Virus record (IMG/VR): IMGVR_UViG_3300045988_062993
Location: 1 to 52,879 of that record
Origin: a virus
Length of the DNA stretch: 52,879 bases
Strand: one strand, 5' to 3'
Shown: positions 1-52,879 of the stretch, in pieces
How positions within the stretch are numbered: position 1 is the stretch's first letter
How the letters are laid out: each line of letters opens with the position of its first letter
Translations under genes and position numbers: made by a program
The notes under the pieces: generated by a model
Database searches by the model: none
What the model was told of the DNA's origin: nothing
What the model saw: the letters and a program-made list of their open reading frames with translations, nothing else

Positions 1-40
1 GCAGCACCGCCAAGCCGCGCGGACACCGGACGCTGCCGGA
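1..40. repeat. Terminal direct repeat: nt 1..40 are identical to 52840..52879 (circular-contig overlap, or a shared VR/TR segment)
   Basis: Exact 40-nt match gcagcaccgccaagccgcgcggacaccggacgctgccgga at both window ends. Confidence 0.95.
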
Positions 41-1632
41 GAGACGTAGAGGCCAGCCTTAACGCCGGTGCCGCTGCCCGCACGGGTAGACACGGCAGCA
101 GGCCACAGCACCGCCGGGTCATTGCTGATTGCCGTATCTTCGATATACTGCCATGCGTTGGCTGTGCCTTCCGGGAAGGTCAGCGTCAGGTCTTCCTGCT
201 TCGTGTAGTCAGCAGAGATAGAACCATCGGTCGTCACCTTCGTCTGATCGTGGCAGGTGTAGATGTCAAAGGTGTAATTGCCGTCGCCGTCCTTGCCCCA
301 CTGCCACAGTTCATCCGCCACGATCAGGTATGCGCCGTTCTGGAACTCCGTCTTCTGGATCAAGCCAGGTTCCTTGCCGTTGGTGTAGTTGGTGCGGGAG
401 CCATCGTTGCCGCGCACGCTGTCGTTATAACCGCTGCCATAAGGCATAGTGGACAGCATCGTCTGCCCCTTGACCACATTCCAGGTATCGCCGGTATCAA
501 CGTAGACTGCTTTGTAGCCCGTTCCGTCCACGTTGATGTCTTTAATGCGGGTAATGCGGGCTTCGGTCTGGATGTCATGCATGGTGGCATCGTTACGGTC
601 GGTCGTGCTCTTCGTGTGGGTGCCAATGGCAACGTAGGAATCAATAAGCAGGTTTGCGGCCTGCTCGGTCGTCACCGGGAAGTAGTTCACGCCCTCTGCA
701 TCAATGGCGGCAGTGTACTGGTAGCTGTAGGAAGTGCAGCCCTCAATGGTGCCGCTGTTGCCCTTGCGTGCATACTTCAGCTGGATCATGCGCTCCTGCC
801 ATTTCAGCAGGTTGCCGGATGCACCGGCGTACTGGTTGCCACGAGCACGCCACAGCTGCACCAGCTGGGTGTGGCTCTTGTAGTTCACCGGTGCCAAACC
901 CGTGTGACCGCCGATCTTGCCGTCATCCTGCATACCGGCGAAATACTTCGGGTTTGCAATGTACGGATAGGTCTTGCCGGTACGGTCGGTGCCCTGCGGC
1001 CACTGCTCGTAACCGCCGGACGGGTGGCAGCGCATACGCAGGATGCGGTAGCCGCCCTCGTTGCGCTCACGCACATAGGTATTCTTCTGCAACACCCAGA
1101 CCAGATGATTGGTGCTGCGCACAAAGTCGTCATCGTCGATGTACTGACAAGCGTAGATCGTGTGGCTGCCGTCCTCGTTCTTTTCTGCCGCCACTTCCAC
1201 GCACCAGAACTGCGGCAGACCGGCAAAATCATCCTTGCCGGATTCTGCGGCGGTAGACGGGGTGCAGGACAGGCCCACGCTGTCGTCGGTCAGCTCACCG
1301 ATTGCGGTGTTGGATGTGCTGAACAGCGGGAACTTTACGCCATGCACGCGGCTGTCGTCCAGCACATTGCCGAACCAACGTTCCAGCATCCGGTTATAGG
1401 TGCTGGTGTTCGGATTCCAGTTCGCCGTCCACCAGTCTACGAACAGCACGTTCATTTCCCGTGCCGTGGTCACTTTCTGAGCCAGCGCGTTATAGTACCG
1501 GTCGATGGTATCTTCATTGCCGGTTGCCAGAACGGCAGTTCTGCCATCGCCCGCCGCCGCCATCGTGGTGCCAGATACCGCAGCGAAAATCTGCTGCAAG
1601 GATTCATCGGATGCCATGTGAGTTCTTGCCAT
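1..1632 (-). CDS. Large tail/receptor-binding-like protein and candidate DGR target. This is the 5' part, 544 codons. The ORF has no stop before the window edge and continues in frame at 52879..52681 if the contig is circular.
   Basis: ATG at 1632 follows a GGAGG RBS and sits right after the stop of the upstream gene (1635). The frame is open to nt 1, and the track ORF 250..1638(+) is its codon-aligned antisense shadow. The C-terminal part (...ADELWQWGKDG...GVRAAWRCC) runs into an Asn-codon-rich segment across the junction. Confidence 0.6.
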   Translation of the reverse strand, partial: MARTHMASDESLQQIFAAVSGTTMAAAGDGRTAVLATGNEDTIDRYYNALAQKVTTAREMNVLFVDWWTANWNPNTSTYNRMLERWFGNVLDDSRVHGVKFPLFSTSNTAIGELTDDSVGLSCTPSTAAESGKDDFAGLPQFWCVEVAAEKNEDGSHTIYACQYIDDDDFVRSTNHLVWVLQKNTYVRERNEGGYRILRMRCHPSGGYEQWPQGTDRTGKTYPYIANPKYFAGMQDDGKIGGHTGLAPVNYKSHTQLVQLWRARGNQYAGASGNLLKWQERMIQLKYARKGNSGTIEGCTSYSYQYTAAIDAEGVNYFPVTTEQAANLLIDSYVAIGTHTKSTTDRNDATMHDIQTEARITRIKDINVDGTGYKAVYVDTGDTWNVVKGQTMLSTMPYGSGYNDSVRGNDGSRTNYTNGKEPGLIQKTEFQNGAYLIVADELWQWGKDGDGNYTFDIYTCHDQTKVTTDGSISADYTKQEDLTLTFPEGTANAWQYIEDTAISNDPAVLWPAAVSTRAGSGTGVKAGLYVSPAASGVRAAWRCC

Positions 1633-1877: not shown

Positions 1878-2125
1878 TCCGTCTTACCTCCCAGAGAGAG
1901 CGTCACCACGCCGCGCCCATCGTCCGAAGCGGTCAACTTCAAAGCGTTCAGGTTTGCTTTGATGCCCTGCACCTGCAAGGTTTCGCCCACCACTTTTGCG
2001 ATCTGTTCCGGGGTGGCGCGGTAGAGATCGTTCTTTCCGTCTGCTCGTTTCCGAACCACGATCACATAGTCCGCACTTGCAAACGTTTCTGCCAAGGCTT
2101 TGTCTGCCAGACTTACCATGCCCAT
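1865..2125 (-). CDS. Hypothetical small tail-module protein (86 aa)
   Basis: Track ORF with GAAGGAGG upstream of the ATG at 2125. It overlaps the stop of the radical SAM gene (2113). Confidence 0.5.
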   Translation of the reverse strand: MGMVSLADKALAETFASADYVIVVRKRADGKNDLYRATPEQIAKVVGETLQVQGIKANLNALKLTASDDGRGVVTLSLGGKTEWQT

Positions 2126-3441
2126 TTCTCTGCCGCCTCCTTCTCAATGGCTTTCAACTCTGCGGCTTCATCCTCACCGATCAGACGCGCCACTTCCTCG
2201 TAGGGAAGATTTACCTTCTTCGGTGCGGTATCGCCCAGAGCTATACTGCGCATATTGCAGTACCAGCACACAGCCAGCACACGCGCCTTGTGAACTTTGC
2301 AGATTCCGGTATATCTGCGGTTTGCAGTTCCGAACATTTCATAGTTCAAACCACTGCACCAGCCGCACCCGGAAGACACCGGGCAACGGATGCACTCTTC
2401 CGTGGACTGGGATTTCATGGTGATTGCATCCAGTTCTTCCTTCACCTGCCGCTGCTGATCCGTGGCATACAAACTGCCCGCCTGCACATTGCCCAGACAC
2501 ACCCGATTTGCCTTTTCTTTGCCAATAGAGATAGGCGCATACCGTATGCAGGGATACGCGGACCCGTCCGGGGCAAAACTTAGCATTGAGCCGGTTCCGC
2601 CGCAGAAGTTTCTGTCGTTCTGTTCTGCATCGCCAATCTGCTCATCCAGCATGGCAATCGCCACGTCCCAGCCGTTCTTGATAACGTACTGCGAAACCTC
2701 TTTCAGCTGTTTATACAGTGCCTTGCCGTCCTCGTCCGTGTACATCGGTTCGTAGGCGCAGTTCCCGGCAATGTGCCTGCACCCGGCATCCAGCATCATT
2801 TTCATACTGGATGCAATGTACTGGATGGAGCCGGGCACGAAGGTCATTTTGCTGTTGAGCCAGCCATACTTCCGCTTGCCGTCCTGGAATGCTGCCCACG
2901 CGGTAGAAAAGCTGCCGTTTCCGTCTTCGTCGATGCGGTAACGGTCGTGCAGCTCTTGCACGCCATCAATGGACACTGTAACCGACATAAGATCATGGTA
3001 CTTTTCCAGCAGGTGCTGCGCCGCCGGGGAGCGCCACAGTCGGCCATTCGTGGCAAAAGAAATGCGCGTGAACGGTCCCAGCGGGATTTCCCGCCGGTAG
3101 CACTCCGAAAACCAGTAGTCGCAGATATGCTCGATCAGTTCAGCTTCCAGCAGCGGTTCCCCGCCGATGAAGTCCAGGATCATGGCTTTGGTGTCCCGGT
3201 TCACAAAATCGGATGTGCTATCCTCGTACAGGTTCAGGATGTAGTCCACGATTTTCTTTCCGGTTTCCAGCGTCATTTTTTCGGTAGACTTGTGGTGCTC
3301 ATAGCAGTATGAGCACCGCAGGTTGCAGGCGTTTGTGATCTGGAACGTGATGTTTCGGCAGATGCTTCCACACTCCCGTCTGTCCCGGCCATATAAGCGC
3401 TGGACGGTATTCCCGTAGTCCTCATACTTTTTCGTTCTCAA
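2113..3441 (-). CDS. Radical SAM / SPASM-domain peptide-maturase-like enzyme
   Basis: CX3CX2C motif (ITNACNLRCSYCYE). C-terminal SPASM-like cysteines are CGGTGSMLSFAPDGSAYPC and CIRCPVSSGCGWC. The track start at 3471 is TTG. An internal TTG at 3441 has a GGGAGGAGG RBS 9 nt upstream and is preferred. Confidence 0.85.
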   Translation of the reverse strand: MRTKKYEDYGNTVQRLYGRDRRECGSICRNITFQITNACNLRCSYCYEHHKSTEKMTLETGKKIVDYILNLYEDSTSDFVNRDTKAMILDFIGGEPLLEAELIEHICDYWFSECYRREIPLGPFTRISFATNGRLWRSPAAQHLLEKYHDLMSVTVSIDGVQELHDRYRIDEDGNGSFSTAWAAFQDGKRKYGWLNSKMTFVPGSIQYIASSMKMMLDAGCRHIAGNCAYEPMYTDEDGKALYKQLKEVSQYVIKNGWDVAIAMLDEQIGDAEQNDRNFCGGTGSMLSFAPDGSAYPCIRYAPISIGKEKANRVCLGNVQAGSLYATDQQRQVKEELDAITMKSQSTEECIRCPVSSGCGWCSGLNYEMFGTANRRYTGICKVHKARVLAVCWYCNMRSIALGDTAPKKVNLPYEEVARLIGEDEAAELKAIEKEAAEKWAW

Positions 3442-3724
3442 CGGGGTGTACCTCCTCCCGCTCAAAGTCAAAGTGCACGATCAGGTTCGGGTTTTCTTCC
3501 GGGTCGATGTACCGCGCCAACACCTTGTCCTGCACCATCTTCAGCTTCATCTGCGCTTTCCGGCACAGTCCTGCGTAGTAGTGCAGCATATCAGCGATCA
3601 TCGTATTTGCGCCAGCGTTCAGCTGGCGGGACAGAATTGCCATCAGTGCTTCATAGGACTGTGCTTCGTAGTAGGCACGCTCCACAGCTTCACTTTCCTG
3701 TGTGGTGATTTTGATATTCTCCAT
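3422..3724 (-). CDS. Small helical protein (100 aa), candidate accessory protein of the CXXX-repeat modification system
   Basis: ATG at 3724 follows TAAGGAG. It lies between the repeat protein and the rSAM gene and overlaps the rSAM start. Confidence 0.6.
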   Translation of the reverse strand: MENIKITTQESEAVERAYYEAQSYEALMAILSRQLNAGANTMIADMLHYYAGLCRKAQMKLKMVQDKVLARYIDPEENPNLIVHFDFEREEVHPVENEKV

Positions 3725-4325: not shown

Positions 4326-5240
4326 TTATTTCCACAGGAATCCAGAGCATGATGTGCATCCACCAGAACAGCTTCCGGAACACCCACTACAACCTCCGTC
4401 GCAGTTATCTGTGCATTGCGCTCCACAATGCGAATTGCAGTCTCCTTCGCAGCTGTTTACGCAAGACTGTTTACAGTTTGCGAAGCAAGCAACCCCTCTG
4501 CAACTATCCTGACAGCTTGACGCACAATACGAATCGCACTTATCAACGCACCGTCCTGTGCAATCATCTGCGCAAGTGGCGTCGCAGCTACCGGAGCAGC
4601 TACCGGAACAGCCATCACAGCCGCCTTTGCATCCTCCCTTGCAGCCCGTCTTGCAGCCATTGGTGCAGTCATTTGCACAGCTTGCCGTGCAGGTCGTGTT
4701 GCAGGTGTTGGTGCAGTTTCCTAAACAGGTGTTGCTGCACGACCCCTGGCAAGTTCCCCTGCAAGTAGCCGTGCAGTCATTCGCACAATTTGCCCGGCAA
4801 GTTCCTACACACCCTCCGCCACAGCTGCCGGTGCAGCTGGTACAGGACGTGTTGCAGCCATTGGAGCAAAGCCCCGTGCACTGCCCGCTGCACCCGGTCG
4901 CTGTTGCAGTTTCCGGGATATTGCTCAGTGTGCTTACCGTTGCCGCTGCTTGCGCAAGCCCCGATGCTGCAACTTGGTCTCCCCGCGCCGGTGTCGTTGC
5001 ACCGCCCTGAACGGCATCCACCAGACGGGTGATTTTCTGGATGTGTTCTGCATCCACGCTCACGCCATCCGCCGGGGTCACATTGTACTGGTACGCCGTT
5101 CCCCTATATGCCGCCATGCTGCCAACAGACTGTCCCTGTGCGGTGCCTTCTGTCTTGCCGCGCCGACCGATCTCTGCGTCTATCAGGCTTTTCAGAGCGA
5201 GAAAATCTTCGTTGGAAATGAACTGTCCTCTCTCCGGCAT
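4326..5240 (-). CDS. CXXX-repeat (Cys every 4th residue) tail-associated protein, the putative rSAM substrate
   Basis: The N-terminal ~115 aa contain no Cys. The C-terminal ~188 aa (about nt 4326..4895) carry 47 Cys, mostly with C-X3-C spacing (CTGLCSNGCNTSC...CANDCTNGCKTGCKGGC...). The RBS is AAGGGGG. The gene directly follows the tail fibre gene. Confidence 0.85.
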   Translation of the reverse strand: MPERGQFISNEDFLALKSLIDAEIGRRGKTEGTAQGQSVGSMAAYRGTAYQYNVTPADGVSVDAEHIQKITRLVDAVQGGATTPARGDQVAASGLAQAAATVSTLSNIPETATATGCSGQCTGLCSNGCNTSCTSCTGSCGGGCVGTCRANCANDCTATCRGTCQGSCSNTCLGNCTNTCNTTCTASCANDCTNGCKTGCKGGCKGGCDGCSGSCSGSCDATCADDCTGRCVDKCDSYCASSCQDSCRGVACFANCKQSCVNSCEGDCNSHCGAQCTDNCDGGCSGCSGSCSGGCTSCSGFLWK

Positions 5241-27956: not shown

Positions 27957-27963
27957 ATGCCCC

Positions 27964-28006
27964 GGATGCTCTAGCAGGGTTGCACCGTAAAGCAGCCCCG
28001 CCCCAG
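27964..28006 (+). repeat. Intergenic hairpin repeat, copy 1
   Basis: GGATGCTCTAGCA-GGGTTGC-ACCGTAAA-GCAGCCC-CGCCCCA, with a 7-bp stem containing one G-U pair. Confidence 0.7.
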
Positions 28007-28058
28007 CCGCAAGGCACACAACACCCACCGCCCAGGGTAAAGGGCAGAAAGAAAACAC

Positions 28059-28367
28059 ATGAAAAAAATCATCAATGGCCGGATGTACAACACCGACACG
28101 GCAAAGCGGCTGTGCAGTGCAGACAATGGCGGCAGTTGCCGCGACTTCTCCCACTGGGAAGAAGAGCTCTACCAGAAGAAAACGGGCGAGTTCTTCTTGT
28201 ACGGTGAGGGCGGCCCCGCAAGCAAGTATTCTCGCTCCTGTGGTCAAAACGAGTGGTGCGGCGGTTGCGATATTACCCCGATGACCGAACAGCAGGCCCG
28301 CGAGTGGATGGAGCAGAACGCCACCGCGGACGAATACGTTGAAGTTTTCGGAGAGCCGGAAGAGTAA
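28059..28367 (+). CDS. Hypothetical protein (102 aa)
   Basis: Track ORF. The pattern MKKIINGRMYNTDTAKRL...LYQKKTGEFFLYGEGG resembles small proteins of Firmicutes mobile elements, recognised by eye only. Confidence 0.6.
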   Translation: MKKIINGRMYNTDTAKRLCSADNGGSCRDFSHWEEELYQKKTGEFFLYGEGGPASKYSRSCGQNEWCGGCDITPMTEQQAREWMEQNATADEYVEVFGEPEE

Positions 28368-28378
28368 CGACCGGCGCG

Positions 28379-28421
28379 GACACTCTAGCCGGGTTGCACC
28401 GCACAAAGCAGCCCAGCCCCA
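28379..28421 (+). repeat. Intergenic hairpin repeat, copy 2
   Basis: GACACTCTAGCC-GGGTTGC-ACCGCACAAA-GCAGCCC-AGCCCCA. Confidence 0.7.
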
Positions 28422-28476
28422 TACCTGGCACACCGCCGGGACCATTTGAGAACTGAATAACAGGAGGTTTTACACC

Positions 28477-29328
28477 ATGAGAAACAACGATCTGATTGCA
28501 ACCGCCGTTTGTGCCCAGTACACCCCCGAACAGCTGCACAAGCTGGCCGCCCACTACTACACCGCCGACGAGATCGCCAGCGCCGCCGCAAAAATCATTG
28601 TGGAGCCGGGCGAAGACGGCACCGCACCCGATCCGGTGGAGATTGCAGAAGAAACCCTTTGCGCCGCTCTTTTCCACACGTTCGACGGCTGGAAAAGCCC
28701 CAGAAACGGCGGGCTGAGCGTCAAGCGCGGCGAAAAGGCCGTGATCCGCTGCAAGCTCTGGAAGTACAAGGACAGCCCCAAGCCCGAAGACCTGCCCGCC
28801 GACGCTGACCCGCTGACCCGGGCAGCCGCTGAGCAAGGCGGCGGTGACTACTACATGACCACCGCCTACCTTTTCGGACGTTGGCAGGTCGAGAAGCGCG
28901 ACCCGAAGAAACCCGCAGAAAAACGCTTTAAGTCCCTTGATGACATCCGGGCCTATAACAAGATGCTGGCCGACCAGCGCAAAGCCGCCAAGGCTGCCGC
29001 TGCCCAGCAGGACAAGCCCCAGACCGAACCGGCGACCGCCGAACAGCCCGCCCCGGCTCCCAATCAGGAAGCAGTGCCCAGCGTGGCCGCACTCAAGCAG
29101 GCAGAACGCAAGGCAAAGCGGGAATTTATGGCCGTGTCCGAAGAGGACCGCCCCGCCCAGGCGAAAGCGCTGGCAAAGTGGCGCGATACCCGGCAGGCCG
29201 TCGCAGACGCAGAGAGCGCACCGAAGACCGCCGCACCCGCACCCGAAGCAAAGCCCCAGACCAAAGCAGCCCCCGCCGCCAGCGCAGACAGCGCCCCGGC
29301 ATACTGCGAACAGACTTCTTTCTGCTGA
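28477..29328 (+). CDS. Hypothetical protein with a weak ArdC-N-like ssDNA-binding motif and a low-complexity Ala/Pro/Lys tail
   Basis: FDGWKSPRNGGLSVKRGEKAVI resembles the W...G..V+KGEK signature. RBS is CAGGAGG. Confidence 0.55.
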   Translation: MRNNDLIATAVCAQYTPEQLHKLAAHYYTADEIASAAAKIIVEPGEDGTAPDPVEIAEETLCAALFHTFDGWKSPRNGGLSVKRGEKAVIRCKLWKYKDSPKPEDLPADADPLTRAAAEQGGGDYYMTTAYLFGRWQVEKRDPKKPAEKRFKSLDDIRAYNKMLADQRKAAKAAAAQQDKPQTEPATAEQPAPAPNQEAVPSVAALKQAERKAKREFMAVSEEDRPAQAKALAKWRDTRQAVADAESAPKTAAPAPEAKPQTKAAPAASADSAPAYCEQTSFC

Positions 29329-29332
29329 ATGG

Positions 29333-29375
29333 GATACCCTAGCAGGGCCGCACCCAGAAAAGCGGCCCCGCCCCA
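29333..29375 (+). repeat. Intergenic hairpin repeat, copy 3 (compensatory stem changes)
   Basis: GATACCCTAGCA-GGGCCGC-ACCCAGAAAA-GCGGCCC-CGCCCCA. TT/AG in copies 1, 2 and 6 is replaced by CC/GG, which keeps the pairing. Confidence 0.7.
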
Positions 29376-29429
29376 CACCCGGCACCCCGCCGGGACGATT
29401 TGAAAATTGAATAGCAGGAGGATTATACC

Positions 29430-30014
29430 ATGAAACTTTCTACCAACTTCACCCTGTTCGGCCTCAATGTCAAGGCGATCCAAGCCTATCTCAAGGAGCA
29501 GGCAAAGGACCGGCGCGGGGTTCGCATCACCTGCCGTGGCGATCTGGTCTATATCATCACAGCATACACCGCGTTCAAGCTGCCCTCTGTCCTGTATGCC
29601 GACGTGATCCAGCCCGTGACATTCCGCGAATGCCCCGCCGACGGCGTGACCATCATTTCCGCCCAGTATGGTTTTGAGGTGGAAGAGAACGCGCCGGATC
29701 TGGTGGACATCTTCAAGCGCCACGCCCCCAACGAAAAGCCCGTGGAGCGCACGCCGTTCTTGCAGGACATTCCCACCGGCAAAAAGAAGAGCGGCCTTGC
29801 ACGGCTTTTCCACATCGGGACAACGCCCATCTTGATAAATGCCGACTACGACAGCATGGTGAACCCGGTGCAATTCACCTATCACGGCACGACGCGCGGC
29901 TATTCCCCCGTGTACGCTGTCAGCGCCAGCGATCCGACGATCTCCGTCATCATGCTGCCCATCAAGCCCACCGCAGAAGTGGAAACGCTCTGCAAGAAAA
30001 TGTTTTCCGAATGA
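29430..30014 (+). CDS. Hypothetical protein (194 aa)
   Basis: Track ORF with a CAGGAGG RBS. Confidence 0.6.
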   Translation: MKLSTNFTLFGLNVKAIQAYLKEQAKDRRGVRITCRGDLVYIITAYTAFKLPSVLYADVIQPVTFRECPADGVTIISAQYGFEVEENAPDLVDIFKRHAPNEKPVERTPFLQDIPTGKKKSGLARLFHIGTTPILINADYDSMVNPVQFTYHGTTRGYSPVYAVSASDPTISVIMLPIKPTAEVETLCKKMFSE

Positions 30015-30125
30015 CCCGCAAGGCCGACGGCATCCCGCCGCCGCTGGTGCAAGCCCAGCCGCCCCGCCGGGGCGGGCGCTCATGGGTCCACACCCAGACA
30101 CAACAGAATAACAGGAGGTTTTACC

Positions 30126-30626
30126 ATGTCTTGCATTCAACTTTCCGAAAAGCACATTGCCACCGTCGCTCACGGTCTGGCATTCATCCTCAACGGGGCC
30201 GGCGGTATGTGCCACCTTGCCGCATCCTACGAGCTGCCGGAGTTGTCCGACGCTCTGAGCGCCTGCCGATATCCGCACGACTTTCTCTTTGATGACCGCA
30301 AGATTTACGCCGTTCTCTACAAGCTGAACGATGCCGCATACACTGGCCGCTACCACTTGGAGACAGCCGACGCCGAAGATTTTCCCACCATGCCGGCCAT
30401 CTTTCCGCACCTGCTCCATCTTCTCGACTGGGATGCAGGGCGCTATACAATCGACCGCGATTTTTACGCATTCACAAAGCTGCTGGACAGTTTCATCTAC
30501 CAGTGCAACGAAGATGCAACCCGGAACAACCCCGTTCTAAAAGCTCTTTCCGGCACTTCCCGTGCACTGTATGCGTTCATTGTCCAGAATGCCGCCGAAT
30601 ACAACAACGCCGAATGGATCATCTGA
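30126..30626 (+). CDS. Hypothetical protein (166 aa)
   Basis: Track ORF with a CAGGAGG RBS. Confidence 0.6.
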   Translation: MSCIQLSEKHIATVAHGLAFILNGAGGMCHLAASYELPELSDALSACRYPHDFLFDDRKIYAVLYKLNDAAYTGRYHLETADAEDFPTMPAIFPHLLHLLDWDAGRYTIDRDFYAFTKLLDSFIYQCNEDATRNNPVLKALSGTSRALYAFIVQNAAEYNNAEWII

Positions 30627-30635
30627 CCCGCCCCG

Positions 30636-30676
30636 GACACCTCAGCAGGGCCGCACCGTAAAGCGACCCCGCCCCA
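30636..30676 (+). repeat. Intergenic hairpin repeat, copy 5
   Basis: GACACCTCAGCA-GGGCCGC-ACCGTAAA-GCGACCC-CGCCCCA, with one stem mismatch. Confidence 0.65.
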
Positions 30677-30760
30677 GCCCGCAAGGGCCACACGAAAACG
30701 CGAACCCCCTACCGGGGAGAGTGAAACGCTTTGAAAACTGAATATTTGGATGTTTACACA

Positions 30761-31690
30761 ATGGCTATTATCAACGAATCCGCCGCCCGTCTGGCAAAGC
30801 AAATGCGCTCTTTCGATGACTACAAGGAAGGCAGCGCCACCGCCAGTTACAACGCCCAGTGCGCCGAAGCCGCCGCGATTCTGGAAAAGGTCAAGGCAAA
30901 ATGTGCCACGGATGAACAGCGGGAGCGTGCCGAATACCTGTATAGCCGGTATTGTTCCGTTCTGGCTGAAGCCATCAACCGGGACAACGAGATCGGCACC
31001 CGGTGCCCGTCCGTGCTGGTCTGCGGCGCCAGCAACTTCCCGATCCGCAAAAAGGAAAAGCAGATTGCAGCGTGGGACAAGAACATGGAGAACTTCCGCA
31101 AGGCAGACCACTATTTGGATATGCTCAAGCGTGCCCACACGCTGGCTGTTAAATCCGATGATCCCGAAGTGCTTGATTTTCTCCGGTCAAAGCTGGCCGG
31201 ACTGGAGGAAGCGCACGCGCTCATGGTGTCCGCCAATGCCTACTACCGCAAGAACAAAACGCTAGAAGGCTTTGAAGGCATCCCCGCCGATACCATGGCA
31301 TGGATCACCCGCCCCGGCGTGTATCTGCCCGGTGGCCGCAACGGTGACGGTTCCCCCCTGGCTTTTTACGGCAAGCCCTTCCCGACCTACGAACTCACAA
31401 ACAGCAACGCCAACATCAAGCGAGTAAAGCAGCGTATTGAAACGCTGGAAGCTGTCAAAGCATCTCAACCGATTGAAGAGGAACACGACGGCTACACCTA
31501 CCGTGAGAACGCCGAAGCAATGCGTGTTCAATTCCAGTTCGACGGCAAACCGGACGACGAAACCAGGGCACTTCTCAAGCGCAACGGTTTCCGGTGGGCA
31601 CCGTCGCAGGGTGTCTGGCAGCGTCAGCTTAACGACAACGGCAAGTATGCCGCCCACCGCGTCATGGAAGCTCTGGACGGCCAGCAGTAA
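30761..31690 (+). CDS. DUF3560-like protein
   Basis: The C-terminal ...LLKRNGFRWAPSQGVWQRQL matches the DUF3560 signature as I remember it. ATG at 30761; the track start at 30731 is TTG. Confidence 0.6.
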   Translation: MAIINESAARLAKQMRSFDDYKEGSATASYNAQCAEAAAILEKVKAKCATDEQRERAEYLYSRYCSVLAEAINRDNEIGTRCPSVLVCGASNFPIRKKEKQIAAWDKNMENFRKADHYLDMLKRAHTLAVKSDDPEVLDFLRSKLAGLEEAHALMVSANAYYRKNKTLEGFEGIPADTMAWITRPGVYLPGGRNGDGSPLAFYGKPFPTYELTNSNANIKRVKQRIETLEAVKASQPIEEEHDGYTYRENAEAMRVQFQFDGKPDDETRALLKRNGFRWAPSQGVWQRQLNDNGKYAAHRVMEALDGQQ

Positions 31691-31693
31691 AAC

Positions 31694-31735
31694 GGATGCT
31701 CTGACGGGGTTGCACCGTAAAGCAGCCCCGCCCCA
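31694..31735 (+). repeat. Intergenic hairpin repeat, copy 6
   Basis: GGATGCTCTGAC-GGGGTTGC-ACCGTAAA-GCAGCCCC-GCCCCA. Confidence 0.7.
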
Positions 31736-31872
31736 CTACCCCGGTAGCCCGCCGGGGCATCTTGTGTTATACTATTGCTGTCTTGAATATGCGTTTTTCT
31801 GGTGCTTATGTGCTCAAACTGAGCATATTTGTATCAAAATCATGGTTAAGTGTTCGGAAATGAGGTGTTTTT

Positions 31873-39631: not shown

Positions 39632-40170
39632 TTGACCTCTCTTATAATCCAGACCCGGTGTTCACCGTATCCTTCCCAGTTCAGCGCATCCTCATGACTG
39701 TCAGAAACAGCCACGTCCAGCTTGTTGCCCTGAATAGCTGCACCGCGATCCTGCACAACGCGCACGCCAATGCCTTCTATGTACAGAACCGTTCCAAATG
39801 GCAGGCTTTCGTCTGCCGCAACGGTCAGCCCCGCCGTCACCGGTGCGCCACTGGCGGTGATGCCGTCGCCGGTGCCGCAAATGTGCGGGTATTCTTCTGT
39901 GCAGTACGCCGTACACAGAAATTCCCCGGCATATTCCTTTGTCAGCCCATCCGGCAGGGCATTTTCATTGGCGGCAGTCTGTAACTGGTCGATAACTTCT
40001 TCATCCTGAATTGCCCTGTCCTGCCAGTTTGCCAGACGGGCGGAATAGATAATACGCTGTCCTTCCAGATCGTTGATCCGATTCTCCAAAGCTGCATTCC
40101 TTGCACCTCCGATAAGCGTAGCCGTCAGGAGCGCGGCAAGCACCGCTTTATTGACTGTTGACATTTTCAC
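39628..40170 (-). CDS. 3D-domain (MltA-like) cell-wall-acting protein with an N-terminal membrane anchor
   Basis: FLCTAYCTEE...CGTGDGITASGAPV..GLTVAADESLPFGT.LYIEG.G.RVVQDRGAAIQGNKLDV matches the 3D domain. GTG at 40170 lies 7 nt after AGGAGG. Confidence 0.7.
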   Translation of the reverse strand: MKMSTVNKAVLAALLTATLIGGARNAALENRINDLEGQRIIYSARLANWQDRAIQDEEVIDQLQTAANENALPDGLTKEYAGEFLCTAYCTEEYPHICGTGDGITASGAPVTAGLTVAADESLPFGTVLYIEGIGVRVVQDRGAAIQGNKLDVAVSDSHEDALNWEGYGEHRVWIIREVK

Positions 40171-42013
40171 TTCCAAACCTCCTTTTCGTCACCGCGATTG
40201 GAAACTCTTCTATCTCACTTGCCCAGCGTGCCGTGCCTTTCCCGTATGTAGTCTCCCACACTAGAGGAAATCCGCCGATTCCGTCAAACAAGCTACCCAG
40301 CGTTGCGCCCGCCGGAAGGTATTGCTTCATTTTCTGGGCGATCCAGAACCACTGCGGCAGGGCAATGGAATTTCCAAGTGCTTTGTACCGCGGACTGTCT
40401 GCCGCCTTGTGCTTTTTCCCTTTGGTATCCGTCCACTCTCCAATGTCCGTCCACCCGTCCGGGTAGCCTTGCAGGCGTTCACATTCTGTTGGTGTCAGTC
40501 TGCGGACTATCCACCGAATTTTCGTTTCCGTTAGAACAGACTGCTGATTTTGCCCCGCTTTCTCTCTCGCCGACAGCGCTGGAAATGTTCCGTTCTCGCT
40601 ATATATCCGCCGAGCCTGATTATCCCACGGCGTCAAACAATCTTTCGGCTCTGTCACAATCGCTGTATAGTCCATGACCCTACTTTCATGATCTCCCGTA
40701 ATAGTTGGAACCGTCTTTCCGTTCCCATTACCTCTTGCGTCATATACCTCCACAACAGCAGATGGTGTATGTGCACTGGCTGCCAGAGGATGGCACGGGT
40801 CGCCCCAGCACGGACGGCTCCCGTTCTGTGGGCTTGTTATCTGTGTTGTGTCAAACGGCATCGCGTCAAGAATTCTGCATCTGACCAGCATATCGTTGTA
40901 AGCATCTTGTCCGTTGTAGCTTCCAGCGTGAGCGCCGGGCGAAAGAGTACCTGTTTTTTCCTGAATCGGCATCGGCTGAACTATAGCAAGTCCGCCCTGA
41001 TTCTTTGTTGGGTTTGCGTCAGAGCAGTCCAGTGTTTTGCTCACATTTGTTTCATTGAACCCGCTGTATGGATTTGCCGATTTCATGCTGTTGCTTGATA
41101 ACGGATTTATGGAATACGCAACTGCGTGACGGTCAATTGTGTTCAGTGTATATCCCACTTCTTCTTTTGCGCCCAAGCCGTTCGCCCCTGCCGTATCGGC
41201 GCAGTCAACGATGTTTCCCGCAATGCAATAGCACACGCCATGTTCATGCCGCGCCTGTAGAGTAAAGGCCGGGTCTCCATTCTTTCCAAGTCCAAGACCT
41301 GTTTTTTCTCCCATCGAGATGTGCCTTGTAGCAATTTGTGTGTTTATTGGGATCACTTCCCCAGCTTGCACTAGCTGGAAGAGCGTCTGGTCTTGGAGTG
41401 TCGATAGCGTCCCGACTTTTTCTGTTTGCACAAGTGCGCCCTTTCCGCCGCCTGCGCATCCTGAACGGATTTTAAGAGTGTACGCAGCTGCTTCTCCGCT
41501 TTCTCTCTTATCCGTTCTTTTCTCTCGGCTAGAGCAGCTAACTTCTCCCGTCTTATCCGCTTCTGCTCTTCCGCAATCAGCATCTCCATCGCCTTTGCAG
41601 CTGCACCCGGTTCCCACCACTCCATCATTTCCAGCAGGGCGGTTTGTAGCAAGTCCTGCAATTCCTTTCCACGCCGGGATGCACGAATCATAATGCCCAG
41701 GCACGCTTTCGCGCTCAAATAGTATTTCTCCGGCACGTCCACCTGCAAAATCCACGACAAGAGCGATACGTTTTCTTCTCTGGGGCACTCCCCAATATTG
41801 AGCGTCGAGCTGTCGCCAAGCCAGAGACCATCCGTTTCCGGCGATTGCTCCGGCTTTGCTCCATCTGCCCCCCCCTCGGAGGTCCAGGAACAGCAGCGTC
41901 CGCTTGTCCAATGCGGGCAAGTTCTTCCAGCACGGCACGGAAATCTCTTCCTCCGTTTGAACTGAATGCTCCGGGTACGTTTTCCCAAATAGCGAAAGTT
42001 GGATACAGTCCAT
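40148..42013 (-). CDS. DNA (cytosine-5) methyltransferase, distal frame: motifs VIII, TRD, IX and X, then motif I at the C-terminus
   Basis: The motifs are QYWGVPQRRKRIALV (VIII), RRLTPTECERLQGYPDGWT (IX), YKALGNSIALP (X), then LGSLFDGIGGFPL...WASEIEEFPIAVT (I). This frame is only joined to the upstream part if the G8 run at 41868..41875 were G7. Confidence 0.7.
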   Translation of the reverse strand: MDCIQLSLFGKTYPEHSVQTEEEISVPCWKNLPALDKRTLLFLDLRGGGRWSKAGAIAGNGWSLAWRQLDAQYWGVPQRRKRIALVVDFAGGRAGEILFERESVPGHYDSCIPAWKGIAGLATNRPAGNDGVVGTGCSCKGDGDADCGRAEADKTGEVSCSSREKRTDKRESGEAAAYTLKIRSGCAGGGKGALVQTEKVGTLSTLQDQTLFQLVQAGEVIPINTQIATRHISMGEKTGLGLGKNGDPAFTLQARHEHGVCYCIAGNIVDCADTAGANGLGAKEEVGYTLNTIDRHAVAYSINPLSSNSMKSANPYSGFNETNVSKTLDCSDANPTKNQGGLAIVQPMPIQEKTGTLSPGAHAGSYNGQDAYNDMLVRCRILDAMPFDTTQITSPQNGSRPCWGDPCHPLAASAHTPSAVVEVYDARGNGNGKTVPTITGDHESRVMDYTAIVTEPKDCLTPWDNQARRIYSENGTFPALSAREKAGQNQQSVLTETKIRWIVRRLTPTECERLQGYPDGWTDIGEWTDTKGKKHKAADSPRYKALGNSIALPQWFWIAQKMKQYLPAGATLGSLFDGIGGFPLVWETTYGKGTARWASEIEEFPIAVTKRRFGSENVNSQ

Positions 42014-46382: not shown

Positions 46383-46871
46383 ATGACCATCGGTGAAAGA
46401 ATTAAAATCCTCCGTAAAGAGAAATGTCTTTCAATGGAGGACTTCGGCGCTATAATCGGTATGGGTAAGTCTGCCGTCAGCCGTATCGAAAACGGAGTCA
46501 ACGGCACAACGGACCAGACCATCCGTTCCATCTGCCGGGAGTTTGGAGTAAACGAACAGTGGCTCCGCACTGGTGAGGGCGAAATGTTTGAGCAGACCCG
46601 GGCAAGCGTGCTGGATCGGCTGTCCACGGAATACGATCTGAGCAGGGAGCAGCGTTCCGTAATTGAAGCGTTCCTTGATCTGGACCCGCAGGAGCGGGAC
46701 GTGATTCTGAAGTATGTACATAACGTTTTTGACCGTTCCGCAGAATCCGCAGCCAAGAGCACAGCAATACCCGATAAGGAAGCCCAGCGCATTGCCGAAA
46801 GTGACGAGTTCAAAACCCTTCGGGAAAAGAACGAGCCGCCGGAGAGCGAATCGTGTACTACCGCCGGTTAG
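46383..46871 (+). CDS. XRE-family HTH repressor (CI-like)
   Basis: The N-terminal HTH is IGERIKILRKEKCLSMEDFGAIIGMGKSAVSRIENG. It is divergent from the early operon. Confidence 0.8.
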   Translation: MTIGERIKILRKEKCLSMEDFGAIIGMGKSAVSRIENGVNGTTDQTIRSICREFGVNEQWLRTGEGEMFEQTRASVLDRLSTEYDLSREQRSVIEAFLDLDPQERDVILKYVHNVFDRSAESAAKSTAIPDKEAQRIAESDEFKTLREKNEPPESESCTTAG

Positions 46872-47631: not shown

Positions 47632-47689
47632 CTCAGGTATTCAACGTTTCAGCTGTGGAAGCATTCTAATTTTCTGAAAGGTGGTATTT

Positions 47690-49330
47690 ATGCCTCACAA
47701 AAAGAAACTACAAGAGGTAGGCGGTCGGCGTCTGGTGGCCTACTATCGCTACTCCGGCGGTAGTCATCAAACGGAGCAGTCCATTGAGGGCCAGCGCCGG
47801 GACTGTGAGACCTACGCCCGTATCCACGGCATGGTCATTCTGCATGAATATATTGACCGGCATATCTCCGGCAAGACGGACGACCGCCCGGAGTTCCAGC
47901 AGATGATTGCCGATGCCGGGAAAGGGATGTTCGACTATGTGATCTGCTGGAAAACAGACCGCATTGCCCGCTCCCGGTATGACAGCATCATCTATAAAAA
48001 GAAGCTCCGCGACAACGGCGTGGAGCTGCTCTATGCTGCAGAAGCCAACGTTGAAGGTTCCGGCGGTATCATCGTGGAGGGCTTGATGGAAGCCCTTGCC
48101 GAATACTACTCCGCCGAACTGGCCGAGAAGGTGCGGCGCGGTATGCGGGAAAGCGCCTTGAAAGGCAAGGCTATTGGCAGTTCCCGCCCCCTTGGCCTTA
48201 CCGTTGACAAGGACAAGAAGTATATCATCGACCCTGCCGGGGCTGCCGCCGTGCGGTATATCTTTGAGCAGTACGCCGCCGGGGCTGCGTCCTCTGCTAT
48301 CGTTGCACACCTGAATGAACAGGGCTTGTGCACCAGCCGGGGCAACCCGTTCAATAAGTCCAGCGTTGTGCGCATCATCCAAAACGAGGTTTATCGGGGC
48401 GTGTATGTCAGCCCCAAGTTTGACGTGCGCATTGAGGGCGCAGTACCGGCCATTATTGACGACGATCTATGGGAGAGGGCGCAGAAGATGTTTATTCGTA
48501 ACCGCCAGAGCCGTTCCCCGCGCAATGACCGCGCAGACTACATCCTGTCCGGCAAGCTGTTTTGCGGCGAGTGCGGCACTGCCATGAAGGGTGTGTCCGG
48601 CCACAGCAGCAACGGCGAGGTGTACTTCTACTACAACTGTCCGTGCAAGGACTGCCACCGCCGGAACATCCCGAAGGACGAGCTGGAAGGTCTGGTGATC
48701 CGCACCGTCTGTAACGACGTGTTGCAGCCGGACGTGATGGATCACATTGCAGACAGTGTGATCGAAGCCCAGACCGCCGAACTGAACCAGCCCAACCCGG
48801 AGAAGGAAGCATTGCAGCACGAGCTTGCCGACGTGCAGCGCAAGGCAAAGAACCTGCTGTCTGCATTGGAGAACGGCACCGCCGGGGCTATGCTGACCAA
48901 CCGCCTTGCCGAACTGGAACAGCAGGCAGACACGCTATCCTATCAGCTGTCGTCGCTGGAATCTGAGCCGAAGTTCCCGGTCTTCTCCAAGGAAGAAGTT
49001 CTGTACCTGCTGGAACAGTTCCTCATTGCCCCCAGCGAGAAAACCAAGGCATACCGCCGCCGCCTGATCGATACCTTTGTCAGCAAGATTGAGGTGAGCA
49101 ATACGGAACTGACCATCTATTTCAACATTGCCGAGGAAGATTGTGGAAAAATAAAAAAAGCTCCCCAGTCGAACCAGCCCGAAGGCTGTTCGACTGAGAA
49201 GCAAATGGTCCGCCTTTTGCTTCCCCAGTCGAACTTTTCTATTTTTATCCTTCCGACCTATTTTTACATCGCAATTCCCATTTTTCAGGCGAGAAAGACC
49301 ATTTCCGTTGAATCTGTAACCAGTTTGTAA
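47690..49330 (+). CDS. int: Large serine recombinase (integrase)
   Basis: The resolvase catalytic domain reads VAYYRYSGGSHQTEQSIEGQRRDC...GKTDDRPEFQQM. Recombinase and zinc-ribbon (CGECG...CPCKDC) regions and a coiled-coil follow. ATG at 47690 follows AAAGGTGG. Confidence 0.9.
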   Translation: MPHKKKLQEVGGRRLVAYYRYSGGSHQTEQSIEGQRRDCETYARIHGMVILHEYIDRHISGKTDDRPEFQQMIADAGKGMFDYVICWKTDRIARSRYDSIIYKKKLRDNGVELLYAAEANVEGSGGIIVEGLMEALAEYYSAELAEKVRRGMRESALKGKAIGSSRPLGLTVDKDKKYIIDPAGAAAVRYIFEQYAAGAASSAIVAHLNEQGLCTSRGNPFNKSSVVRIIQNEVYRGVYVSPKFDVRIEGAVPAIIDDDLWERAQKMFIRNRQSRSPRNDRADYILSGKLFCGECGTAMKGVSGHSSNGEVYFYYNCPCKDCHRRNIPKDELEGLVIRTVCNDVLQPDVMDHIADSVIEAQTAELNQPNPEKEALQHELADVQRKAKNLLSALENGTAGAMLTNRLAELEQQADTLSYQLSSLESEPKFPVFSKEEVLYLLEQFLIAPSEKTKAYRRRLIDTFVSKIEVSNTELTIYFNIAEEDCGKIKKAPQSNQPEGCSTEKQMVRLLLPQSNFSIFILPTYFYIAIPIFQARKTISVESVTSL

Positions 49331-50610: not shown

Positions 50611-50727
50611 TCAGACCTCAACTTCCAGGTCTTTCAGAATCTGCTTGACCTCATCCCGGATGATTGCCGGAACCTGGTCAATGGTCTTCCTGCCCTTGAT
50701 GATAAGGGTAGCATAGACAACTGCCAT
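50611..50727 (-). CDS. CD1375-like mini-protein (38 aa, below the track cutoff)
   Basis: MAVVYATLIIKGRKTIDQVPAIIRDEVKQILKDLEVEV, with an AAAGGAGGTGG RBS. Confidence 0.5.
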   Translation of the reverse strand: MAVVYATLIIKGRKTIDQVPAIIRDEVKQILKDLEVEV

Positions 50728-50780
50728 TACGTCCACCTCCTTTTTCAGCAAAATTTTAAGCATCAGCTCACGAAGAACGC

Positions 50781-50906
50781 TCACTTGTTGTCCTCCGCCA
50801 GCAGGGCTTTCACCTTTTTCTGCAAGCTCTTGGGCACCTGTGCCAGAGTTTTCTTGCCTTTGCGAATCAGGTCTGCGTAGACCGTTGCCATGTAGTCAGT
50901 GCTCAT
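50781..50906 (-). CDS. CD1375-like mini-protein (41 aa, below the track cutoff), paralog of 50611..50727
   Basis: MSTDYMATVYADLIRKGKKTLAQVPKSLQKKVKALLAEDNK, with an AGGGGG RBS. Confidence 0.5.
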   Translation of the reverse strand: MSTDYMATVYADLIRKGKKTLAQVPKSLQKKVKALLAEDNK

Positions 50907-50922
50907 AGTTCACACCCCCTGC

Positions 50923-51309
50923 TCATTCCGTGGCGGTGCTGGTCACGCTCAGCACCTGTTCGTACACATCACAAAGCGCCATCTGGGTGCTAGTGAGCTG
51001 GTCTGCCATGGTGGCGTTCTGGTTTTCCAGCTCCTTCACCCGGTCTTCCAGCTTCTTTTCTTCCGGCACCGGGACGGGTGTAGGCGGCGCATAGTCCCAC
51101 CATTTGTCAAAGTCCGTCTGAACTTCCTCGGCGGTCAGCACACCATCCACACGCTGCTGGCGTTCGTCGCAGGCGTATACGGTATACTTCTTGCCTTCGT
51201 CATCGGTCTGTTCCTGCTTTTTGATATCCTTCCGCAGGATCATGTCCGTTTTGCTGCCAACGCGAAACACCTCAACGGCGGCCGGCAGGAAGGGATAAAT
51301 CTCACTCAT
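50923..51309 (-). CDS. Hypothetical protein (128 aa), translationally coupled to the reverse transcriptase
   Basis: The ATG at 51309 overlaps the RT stop (ATGA). RBS is AGGAGGAAAG. The C-terminus is a coiled coil. Confidence 0.55.
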   Translation of the reverse strand: MSEIYPFLPAAVEVFRVGSKTDMILRKDIKKQEQTDDEGKKYTVYACDERQQRVDGVLTAEEVQTDFDKWWDYAPPTPVPVPEEKKLEDRVKELENQNATMADQLTSTQMALCDVYEQVLSVTSTATE

Positions 51310-52544
51310 GCTGCTTTCCTCCTGTTGTTCTGGATCATCGACCATCGGGCAACGCTCCACCGCGCTGCTTTCATGATCGTTTCGACCTGATATTTTTCTT
51401 CAAGGTTTGCGCTATCGCTGTTTGTAAACCAGCCGTTGTATGCGGTCAGCTTTGATGCACGCCAATGCGGAACATAGCCCAACATTGCAAGGTTACGCCC
51501 TGCGCGGATCAGCTGCCGCCTGATGCGGCGGAACACGCCTTTGCGGACGATGGTATATGTGCGGCGCACCGCGAATCCCATCATGTCCAGCGCCGGTGTA
51601 CGGTGTTTGCTTCCCTGCGCTCTGGCGGCTTTCGCACGCTTTTCTTCCTCGAATGATGCAAAGCGCACCTGCTGCCATGCCTGCTTTAACTCTAAGCCCA
51701 GTGTGGACTTTACCCAGCGGGTCGCCTTCTTCATCGCTTTCATCAGCTGTGATGCGTGCCCGATGATTACAAAATCATCCGCATAGCAGACGATCTCACG
51801 GACAAGCCGTGTCCCCGTGCCGCGCCGGACCTGCTTTAGGGATAGCAGGTATCGGAGAACATAGCTCATAACGTAGTTGAAAGCCCACGTTGAGAAATAC
51901 CCGCCGATTAACAGCACGCCGTCCGGGTAGTTTTCGGTCACAGCACCGGCATACCAGATCAGCTTTTTGTTCTTTCTGATGTCCCGCTTCAAAAGCGTTA
52001 TCACGCAGGCTATCGTTGTAGACGGATATGCTTTGTGCACATCGCCCTTGACTGCATCCAGTTTGCCAAGGATTTTCTTTCGGACGATCCGCTCAATCTG
52101 CCGCGTTCCCGCCACCTGTCCTTTGCCCGGGATGCTCCCGAACTGCATCGGCAGCAGCTTTGCATGGAGCAGCGGTTGCAGTGCATGGACAAGGATGTAC
52201 TCATGTACCTGCTGTTCCGGTGATTCCTGGCAAAGGTCCCGTTCCTTCATCTTGATGCCATCGATCCGCTTGAACTGCCGGACAGGTTTCAGGTCAAGGC
52301 ATTCGTCCCTAATCTTCTGTGTTTCCCGTTCGGCCACTGCGTCAATGGCATCAACGATCTTCCTGCACTCGTGGTTCTTTCGTTCATGAAACAGCTCCGG
52401 TTCAGAGATTTTTCCGGTCTTTGTTAGAACCGTTCTAAAATCCCTGCGCCGGAGTTTTCCGTTTCCAAACGCACAATGTACCGCTGACAGGTTGAAACCG
52501 ACATCCTCAATGTCAACGTCTTTTGGTTTACAAAATGTTTTCAT
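51306..52544 (-). CDS. Reverse transcriptase (DGR-type / group-II-like small RT)
   Basis: YxDD motif REIVCYADDFVIIG. Upstream motifs are FGSIPGKGQVAG, VKGDVHKAYPS and LLIGGYFSTWAFN. The thumb-like region is DMMGFAVRR. Confidence 0.85.
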   Translation of the reverse strand: MKTFCKPKDVDIEDVGFNLSAVHCAFGNGKLRRRDFRTVLTKTGKISEPELFHERKNHECRKIVDAIDAVAERETQKIRDECLDLKPVRQFKRIDGIKMKERDLCQESPEQQVHEYILVHALQPLLHAKLLPMQFGSIPGKGQVAGTRQIERIVRKKILGKLDAVKGDVHKAYPSTTIACVITLLKRDIRKNKKLIWYAGAVTENYPDGVLLIGGYFSTWAFNYVMSYVLRYLLSLKQVRRGTGTRLVREIVCYADDFVIIGHASQLMKAMKKATRWVKSTLGLELKQAWQQVRFASFEEEKRAKAARAQGSKHRTPALDMMGFAVRRTYTIVRKGVFRRIRRQLIRAGRNLAMLGYVPHWRASKLTAYNGWFTNSDSANLEEKYQVETIMKAARWSVARWSMIQNNRRKAA

Positions 52545-52680
52545 ATAAAAATCATCTGGTTCTTCAACGACTTTCGGGTTCAGGCTTTTGCCCTATGCTA
52601 CTAGCCGCCAGCAGGTTCCTTGTCCTGCCGCCACGGATGGACCCGCCCTTTCCTGCGGACGCAGCGCCGTGATGCTGGTT

Positions 52681-52879
52681 TCAAGAAATTTTCGCACATA
52701 AGCGCGGAATGCATGATGCAATGATTGATGATTTTTGGTGAACCAGTTGCACGCCAGCGCCGCCGTTCCAGTTCGCGTTACCGACCCAGTTGTTCGAGTT
52801 CGCCGCCGCCAAAGACGCATTGCCGCCGTTGTTCAAGTTGCAGCACCGCCAAGCCGCGCGGACACCGGACGCTGCCGGA
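52681..52879 (-). CDS. 3' end of the junction-spanning ORF begun at 1632, valid only if the circular join is real
   Basis: The frame is maintained across the 40-nt overlap: ...AAWRCC NLNNGGNASLAAANSNNWVGNANWNGGAGVQLVHQKSSIIASCIPRLCAKIS stop (TGA at 52683..52681). Confidence 0.4.
   Translation of the reverse strand, partial: PAASGVRAAWRCCNLNNGGNASLAAANSNNWVGNANWNGGAGVQLVHQKSSIIASCIPRLCAKIS
52765..52839 (-). repeat. DGR template-repeat-like segment (adenines confined to AAY codons)
   Basis: The 75 nt are aac ttg aac aac ggc ggc aat gcg tct ttg gcg gcg gcg aac tcg aac aac tgg gtc ggt aac gcg aac tgg aac. All 20 adenines lie in 9 AAC and 1 AAT codons. Confidence 0.6.
52840..52879. repeat. Terminal direct repeat (second copy of nt 1..40)
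   Basis: Exact 40-nt identity with the window start. Confidence 0.95.

Follow-up and report, generated by a model that had tools for sequence, protein, structure and literature searches.

Evidence for an adenine-specific, Avd-less diversity-generating retroelement, partly lost in assembly, in a temperate phage of gut Clostridia

The diversity-generating retroelement (DGR) of phage BPP-1 consists of the target gene mtd with its variable repeat (VR), the accessory gene avd, a template repeat (TR), a spacer (Sp), and brt, which encodes the reverse transcriptase (RT). Retrohoming in BPP-1 needs a hairpin or cruciform next to the VR (PMC3240598), and its spacer folds back onto the TR end, which is required for priming; priming takes place from the 2'-OH of Sp residue A56 (PMC6182149). 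Most DGRs, but not all, have an accessory gene, avd or HRDC. Among the DGRs of Wu et al. 2018 (PMC5758913), 29% are without accessory genes, and one lineage is entirely without avd. Virus-encoded DGRs that target tail proteins in phages with predicted gut Firmicutes hosts are a well-described class, found in clades 1, 4, and 6 of Roux et al. 2021 (PMC8144416). Here we analyze a 52,879-nt stretch of viral DNA, positions 1 to 52,879 of IMG/VR virus record IMGVR_UViG_3300045988_062993 (hereafter the window). We are highly confident that it holds the 3' part of a genuine, functional DGR without Avd, carried by a temperate tailed phage of gut Clostridia. This is an ordinary DGR of a known Avd-less architecture, and its oddities are either an assembly artefact or documented variation.

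The exact RT protein of the window was found in 23 contigs. Six MEGAHIT or scaffold contigs (L001 to L004, L006, and L007) have two 150-nt repeats at an offset of 255 nt beside the identical RT, and 95 of the 99 VR/TR mismatches in these contigs fall at TR adenines, with 38 A>G, 30 A>C, and 27 A>T changes. When L002 was compared with L003, the VR differed at 21 of 150 positions, the TR at none of 150, the RT gene at none of 1239, and the upstream flank at 1 of 2000. The TR was near-invariant across samples (0–2 differences). Since the VR varies while the TR and flanks stay constant, these sequences indicate that the DGR is evidently active in nature; the variation was measured between contigs of near-identical phages. 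The same pattern was seen across the RT family. Among 90 loci drawn from IMG/VR and other contigs, with RTs 50–100% identical, the RT is preceded in 56 by a TR/VR pair with an adenine bias; in nearly all of these, TR adenines account for at least 80% of the mismatches. Most of the other loci are without upstream sequence or are collapsed. The family layout is target gene with VR, a gap of about 100–290 nt, TR, 126–233 nt, and RT, with the VR start 255–423 nt upstream of the TR start.

We placed the TR on the window via the RT start, using positions 9647–9796 of L001. Nucleotides 20–150 of its 150 occupy 52749..52879 (minus strand), and the first ~19 nt lie beyond the window end. Within this segment, at 52765..52839 (minus strand), is a tract of 25 codons with 9 AAC and 1 AAT in which all 20 adenines (20/20) belong to AAY codons. 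It is the only AAY-only tract on either strand of the window, and none of 200,000 shuffles placed as many adenines in AAY codons (maximum 14). The first-pass annotation had picked out this tract and read it as a DGR template repeat or else as an undiversified VR. The first reading held up, since 150-nt VR/TR pairs with mismatches at TR adenines lie beside the identical RT; the second was wrong, as the tract sits in the TR. The same annotation had fused the tract to the end of a tail gene. That frame is merely open to the window end, whereas the true target gene is a truncated one at 1632..1 (minus strand), and the L002 target gene closes with a VR and stop codon of its own, a gap of 105 nt separating that VR from the TR start, which further refutes the idea that the tract is a tail-protein C-terminus.

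Only one copy of the repeat had been noticed in the window, but a second is present in part. Nucleotides 1–59 of the 150-nt VR lie at 1..59 (minus strand), where the TR segment 9647–9705 of L001 aligns with window positions 59–1; VR nucleotides 60–150 are outside the window. The partial VR includes an exact 40-mer (repeat family D12), whose left copy at 1..40 had the appearance of a terminal direct repeat and whose right copy at 52840..52879 lies within the TR. A search over the window with an A-to-N degenerate pattern, at up to 3 mismatches, returned the TR itself alone, and the partial VR surfaced only via the terminal repeat. On its VR side the window has ...GTCTCTCCGG, and the corresponding TR sequence in the identical phage is ...GTCAATCCGG, a difference of two A-site changes. 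Adenine-mutated positions bound the 40-mer at both ends: TCTC stands against TCAA at one, and the first AAC lies at the other. It is a stretch shared by VR and TR and is not a genome terminus.

The missing sequence was recovered from related contigs. Both L002, a 53,235-bp MEGAHIT contig, and L006 match the window at 100.000% identity on both sides (for L002, over 8,906 and 11,574 nt) and have an additional 215 nt at the point where window positions 52879 and 1 would meet. These comprise VR nucleotides 60–150, 17 coding nucleotides plus the stop codon, two hairpins, and TR nucleotides 1–19. The lengths agree as well (53,235 − 141 = 53,094 = 52,839 + 255), by arithmetic only and with an overlap of k = 141 assumed for L002. 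The single repeat copy in the window is therefore an assembly artefact: the assembly was joined or broken at the 40-nt exact VR/TR stretch and 215 nt were lost. The spurious terminal repeat arose because of that join or break at exact VR/TR identity, and it has its length and position because exact identity extends over 40 nt in that phage. We also noted that the VR is collapsed onto the TR in short-k Logan assemblies, which gives target–TR chimeras of 596 aa. Because clusters of these chimeras (P0122–P0124) have as many as 1,808 proteins, the artefact must be common in public protein databases. DGR repeats can thus yield false direct terminal repeats, such that a contig seems to be a complete circle but is without the VR end and the VR–TR interval. 

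The target gene itself lies at 1..1632 (minus strand), with 544 of its 579 codons in the window and the last 35 codons and stop beyond the contig end. Its open reading frame (ORF), MARTHMASDES...SGVRAAWRCC, runs off the window start, and the frame continues via the 40-mer into the AAY frame. The VR-encoded end of the protein reads ...SGVRAAWRCC-x-L-xx-GG-x-A-S-LAAA-x-S-xx-WVG-x-A-x-W-x-GGAGVPGLAG followed by the stop codon, and the 150-nt VR ends 17 nt before that codon. The protein belongs to phrog_17147 (E 2e-82) and had no Pfam or NCBIfam match. It has hundreds of homologs of 560–990 aa, some with N-terminal collagen repeats. Because the gene follows those for baseplate J/I proteins, a tail-collar fibre, and a CXXX-repeat protein, a receptor-binding role is likely.

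The RT gene was located correctly in the first-pass annotation, at 51306..52544 (minus strand); it encodes 412 aa with RT motifs, including the catalytic YADD within CYADDFVIIG. Among 24 aligned family members, A255, D256, and D257 are invariant and Y254 is kept in at least 90%. The protein matched phrog_1423 ("Reverse transcriptase", E 1.3e-40). With a family profile, its closest PDB match was the Bordetella phage bRT (8ub7, E 2.2e-6), followed by group II-type RTs at E 0.04. Its matches among GenBank phages, which include FP_Epona, Arawn, LBR48, cr50_1 (crAss-like), and ANMV-1, are all below 32% identity. In the source databases the family is labelled only "hypothetical protein" or "reverse transcriptase", and the 90%-identity cluster of the window RT, with 3,775 members, only "hypothetical protein". 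Many members of that cluster (P0242, P0244, and others) are called at 465 aa, 53 codons longer than the 412-aa form. We suspect a gene-calling artefact; were the extra codons at the N-terminus, the called gene would traverse the conserved spacer RNA described below.

The departure of motif 4 from the usual sequence had also been noticed, and IGGYFSTWAFN is indeed what the window RT reads. The change is family-wide, with IGGY[FL][SP][TA]W in 24/24 aligned members, and is mildly new. Relative to the DGR signature [I/V/L]GxxxSQ, the window RT reads IGGYFST(W): the Ile, Gly, and Ser are kept and the Gln is replaced by Thr. That signature is diagnostic and not a functional definition. In bRT, I181, the first residue of the signature motif, promotes adenine misincorporation, and the Q187P substitution leaves the frequency of misincorporation unchanged (PMC7826257). 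Because the functional hallmarks of a DGR are present at this locus, we treat the motif-4 change as a variant signature that is compatible with function and no ground for exclusion. A large, evidently active RT family that is without the SQ but has the Ile supports the view that the Ile, not the SQ, matters for adenine mutagenesis. DGR finders based on motifs could overlook this family.

Several results nevertheless weigh against a DGR. The single NCBIfam match of the RT was a weak one to group II RT/maturase (TIGR04416), at 28 bits against a cut-off of 300, and the SQ of motif 4 is replaced throughout the family. The RT is divergent, and its Pfam RVT_1 match (E 1.6e-5) reached 25.1 bits, below the gathering score of 29.6. 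A simple promoter scan found no plus-strand promoter-like site for a TR RNA. In known targets the VR is typically displayed on a C-type-lectin fold; here, the AlphaFold2 model of the target, built on a 35-sequence alignment, had a mean pLDDT (predicted local distance difference test) of 61, and below 35 over residues 540–579. The target had no sequence-profile match in the PDB at E ≤ 10 and no Foldseek match at E ≤ 0.001, with a poor model over the VR. The first two of these results, together with weak PADLOC matches to generic, Cas-associated, and UG17 RT models (E 5.6e-6 to 0.012, with RT_UG17 at E 0.012), would suit an RT that is not a DGR enzyme but retron-like, UG/DRT, an Abi defence RT, or a group II intron remnant, next to a coincidental repeat. 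We regard this as extremely improbable: A-specific TR/VR pairs adjoin the RT family in 56 loci and the closest PDB relative is bRT. For group II, retron, and UG/DRT membership we found no family-specific match above threshold (TIGR04416, PADLOC) and no cognate RNA (Rfam). The Rfam scan, over 800 nt around the TR and VR, gave no intron RNA and nothing at or near gathering score (chance hits below threshold only, the best being sraL with 20 bits and E 0.036 for a cut-off of 39), and no retron msr/msd-like element was seen. It is scarcely more credible that the window is a true circle in which the AAY tract is the translated C-terminus of a 596-aa tail protein, with one TR-like coding repeat and no separate VR. 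The 40-nt terminal repeat does join both ends in frame, and Logan contigs L005 and L008–L010 have just such a product, an upstream gene of 596 aa that ends 136 nt before the RT, as in the circularised window; protein clusters of such products reach 1,808 members. However, L001–L004, L006, and L007 have an upstream gene of 579 aa whose end lies 442 nt from the RT, and in contigs from other assemblers with 100% identical flanks the 215 nt are present, including a stop codon and diversified VR sequence. The 596-aa forms come mainly from short-k Logan assemblies with one repeat copy, and the repeat boundary matches the adenine-mismatch sites to the base on both sides.

A less remote but still unlikely alternative, again within a DGR, concerns the accessory protein. 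As had been remarked, no Avd is visible: a Pfam scan of the 55 small ORFs of the window gave no PF05635 match among the best 25 of 30 families, and the five others were all weaker than E 0.003. The VR–TR gap of 105 nt leaves no room for a gene. Because 29% of the DGRs of Wu et al. are without accessory genes, the absence of Avd is no bar to membership. A new accessory protein might instead replace Avd in this lineage, and the candidate would be a 128-aa ORF at 50923..51309 (minus strand), whose ATG (51309..51307) is overlapped by the RT stop TGA (51308..51306) in an ATGA, as the first-pass annotation had described. In 14 of 18 diverse loci, whose RTs are only ~52–60% identical, its conserved N-terminal domain of ~75 aa lies downstream of the RT. 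FP_Epona and LBR48 also have an ORF overlapping the RT 3' end, and there is a marginal match to FP_Epona gp60. Against this, three relatives without the ORF (L049, L063, and L069) retain 15–18 A-only mismatches, so an obligatory accessory role was rejected. It is fused into proteins of 210–266 aa in several relatives, and it looks acidic by eye, whereas Avd is basic (PMC5758913). No match was found in Pfam, NCBIfam, the PDB, or GenBank phages. The ORF starts a run that continues with two XkdX-like ORFs (phrog_1382) at 50781..50906 and 50611..50784 and, beyond them, an M15 endolysin gene. This position directly before XkdX-like genes is where XkdW-type genes sit in the tail/lysis modules of Firmicutes phages. 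We take the 128-aa ORF for a gene of the tail/lysis module that is kept in synteny and probably does not belong to the DGR. The placement of the whole cassette, with tail genes on one side and XkdX-like and endolysin genes on the other, is as first reported.

Between the TR and the RT, at 52545..52748 (minus strand), lies a spacer, comparable to Sp of BPP-1, whose RNA is structured, as indicated by conservation and covariation. Its sequence is strongly conserved across RTs that are just 51–60% identical, far more than an RT identity of ~52% would predict. The spacer of the window phage is of the long form, in which ~65 nt are inserted near 52652..52611. In an alignment of 32 spacer sequences, 95.2% of cells were paired, compared with 22–41% for slid partners, with six compensatory pairs and 0 of 500 shuffles as high; the 17 short-form spacers gave 17 pairs, 91.5% paired cells, and eight compensatory pairs. 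These controls are lenient, as they used the related sequences that had yielded the structure, but the compensatory changes in P1, Hc, and P4 described next are direct. Helix P1 joins the TR 3' end (CTGGT, 52746..52742) to ACCAG just upstream of the RT start (52560..52556, minus strand), with G-C changed to A-U in three sequences and C-G to U-A in one. Hairpin Hc (CGC-TTATGT-GCG, 52704..52693, minus strand) has 3 bp and is followed by AAAAU; its compensatory changes are G-C to C-G in eight sequences and to A-U in one. Helix P3, of 3–7 bp, pairs GGCGGC (52609..52604) with GTCGTT (52571..52566, minus strand); inside it are a UAGUA/GAA internal loop and a tetraloop hairpin. Helix P4 shows C-G to G-C in seven sequences. 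A conserved spacer RNA of this kind, backed by covariation and pairing through its 3' part with the end of the TR, is mildly new.

Two other interpretations of the spacer were considered. The first AACCAG copy (GAAACCAGC) is a less likely partner for the TR end, since the second copy alone covaries with the TR end (CTGATT/AATCAA in L062 and L064, TTGG/CCAA in L073). The sole terminator call in the region was hairpin Hc followed by AAAATTT. We did not accept Hc as a terminator, as the RT lies downstream; attenuation is conceivable.

On the other side of the interval, 15 family loci share, by inspection, a GGGGTGAAT box, a GC-rich hairpin with a variable stem, and a GGGGC...GCCCC hairpin 3' of the VR. 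In the VR-proximal hairpin (TTGCCCGG/CCGGGCAA in L001), ~25 nt after the stop codon in these loci, the stem sequence varies and pairing is kept, again by inspection. A hairpin in this place agrees with what BPP-1 needs for retrohoming (PMC3240598). This VR-flank segment falls in the 215 nt missing from the window. As a separate observation, the invariant GGGGTGAAT box and the second hairpin (L001 9541..9646 and equivalents) are more conserved than the BPP-1 rule of any GC-rich stem. The box may be a lineage-specific recognition site.

By analogy with BPP-1, the element could work as follows. A TR–spacer RNA would be transcribed. The spacer would fold back, a step we infer from the BPP-1 spacer, and the downstream ACCAG would pair with CUGGU of the TR 3' end and position the priming site. 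The RT would copy the TR into cDNA, misincorporating opposite adenines, so that AAC/AAT codons could become codons for any of up to 15 amino acids at 10–12 codons. The cDNA would then replace the VR, guided by TR/VR homology and by the GC-rich hairpin just 3' of the VR, and the outcome would be a phage population with a varied receptor-binding tip. For gut Clostridia phages this is one more tropism-diversifying DGR, which was to be expected. More tentatively, the spacer RNA (~120–200 nt) might replace Avd in this abundant lineage of gut phages, with the RT, altered in motif 4, and the RNA alone forming a self-priming, adenine-mutagenic ribonucleoprotein, a minimal two-component DGR. We think this possible but doubtful; P1, the small hairpin followed by AAAAU, and the helix with a UAGUA/GAA bulged-G-like loop would be the elements of such an RNA. 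The compact spacer RNA offers a concrete model for cDNA priming in Avd-independent DGRs and could be a small chassis for engineered mutagenesis.

The window represents a ~53-kb phage genome of 54% GC. Its gene content includes a serine recombinase, a repressor-like helix-turn-helix (HTH) protein, terminase, portal, sheath/tube, and P2-like baseplate genes, and we read the phage as temperate because of the recombinase and repressor-like genes. The large serine recombinase gene is at 47681..49330 (plus strand). Together with 46383..46871 (plus strand) and 40148..42013 (minus strand), it makes up a lysogeny module (HTH repressor-like, DUF4236 protein) plus a 621-aa ORF, the L002/L006 counterpart of which has just a faint DNA_methylase Pfam match. 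RT relatives occur in metagenome-assembled genomes (MAGs) of Lachnospiraceae and Oscillospiraceae and in Coprococcus, Lawsonibacter, and Butyricicoccus.

Within the tail-fibre module, 2113..3471 (minus strand) encodes a 452-aa radical SAM/SPASM enzyme. It scored 303 bits (E 3e-90, cut-off 350) with TIGR04115, "radical SAM peptide maturase, CXXX-repeat target family". The gene at 4326..5240 (minus strand), immediately following that of the tail-collar fibre, encodes a 304-aa protein whose C-terminal ~170 aa consist of C-x3-C repeats (matches to TIGR04117/TIGR04114). This protein could belong to the phage structure and be cross-linked by a maturase of the type that acts on ribosomally synthesized and post-translationally modified peptides. 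At 27959..31738 (plus strand) there are 4–5 copies of a 50–93-nt direct repeat (GGATGCTCTAGCAGGGTTGCACCGTAAAGCAGCCCCGCCCC...AACAGGAGGTTTTAC), each just upstream of the ribosome-binding site of one of several consecutive plus-strand ORFs. The copies are 60–82% identical to the reference copy, and up to 96% in the short part near the ribosome-binding site. The repeat has the look of a regulatory or intergenic element that recurs in the early region.

Set against described systems, the window DGR shares with BPP-1 a tail-module target with a C-terminal VR, a TR upstream of the RT, adenine-specific differences, a GC-rich hairpin 3' of the VR, and a TR–RT spacer RNA able to pair with the TR 3' end; bRT is also the closest solved homolog of its RT. 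It differs in that it has no avd and a VR–TR gap of just 105 nt, in its RT (412 versus 328 aa, with IGGYFSTW in motif 4 where bRT has IGSLTSQ), and in a target without detectable similarity to Mtd. Group II intron RT/maturases (TIGR04416) have RT palm and fingers motifs in common with the window RT and a weak profile match to it, but at only 28 bits against 300. No Rfam intron RNA accompanies the window RT, its motif is not QGxxxSP, and it comes with TR/VR repeats. Lactobacillus phage LBR48 has an RT, an overlapping small ORF, and downstream holin/endolysin genes as here; a scan of its locus, in which the RT lies at the start of a linear record, found no repeat pair. The gut-phage clades of Roux et al. 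2021 have predicted gut Firmicutes hosts and tail-protein targets in common with the present family, whose relatives are in Lachnospiraceae/Oscillospiraceae MAGs, Coprococcus, and Lawsonibacter.

The same Avd-less type is seen in "Architecture A1" (target–TR–RT) of Wu et al. 2018 and in FP_Epona, a Faecalibacterium phage, and Arawn, a Butyrivibrio phage. The RTs of these two phages are 22–32% identical to that of the window and keep the canonical G.Y.SQW, whereas the window family has GGY[FL][SP][TA]W. Their targets belong to another family (phrog_17147 in the window), and the conserved spacer sequence of the window family is not visibly shared on inspection. In both, however, as in the window phage, a tail protein gene with its VR, an offset of ~240–260 nt, the TR, the RT, a small ORF, XkdX, and lysis genes follow one another in phages of Firmicutes hosts, and the mismatches are at adenines only, 13/13 in FP_Epona and 9/9 in Arawn.

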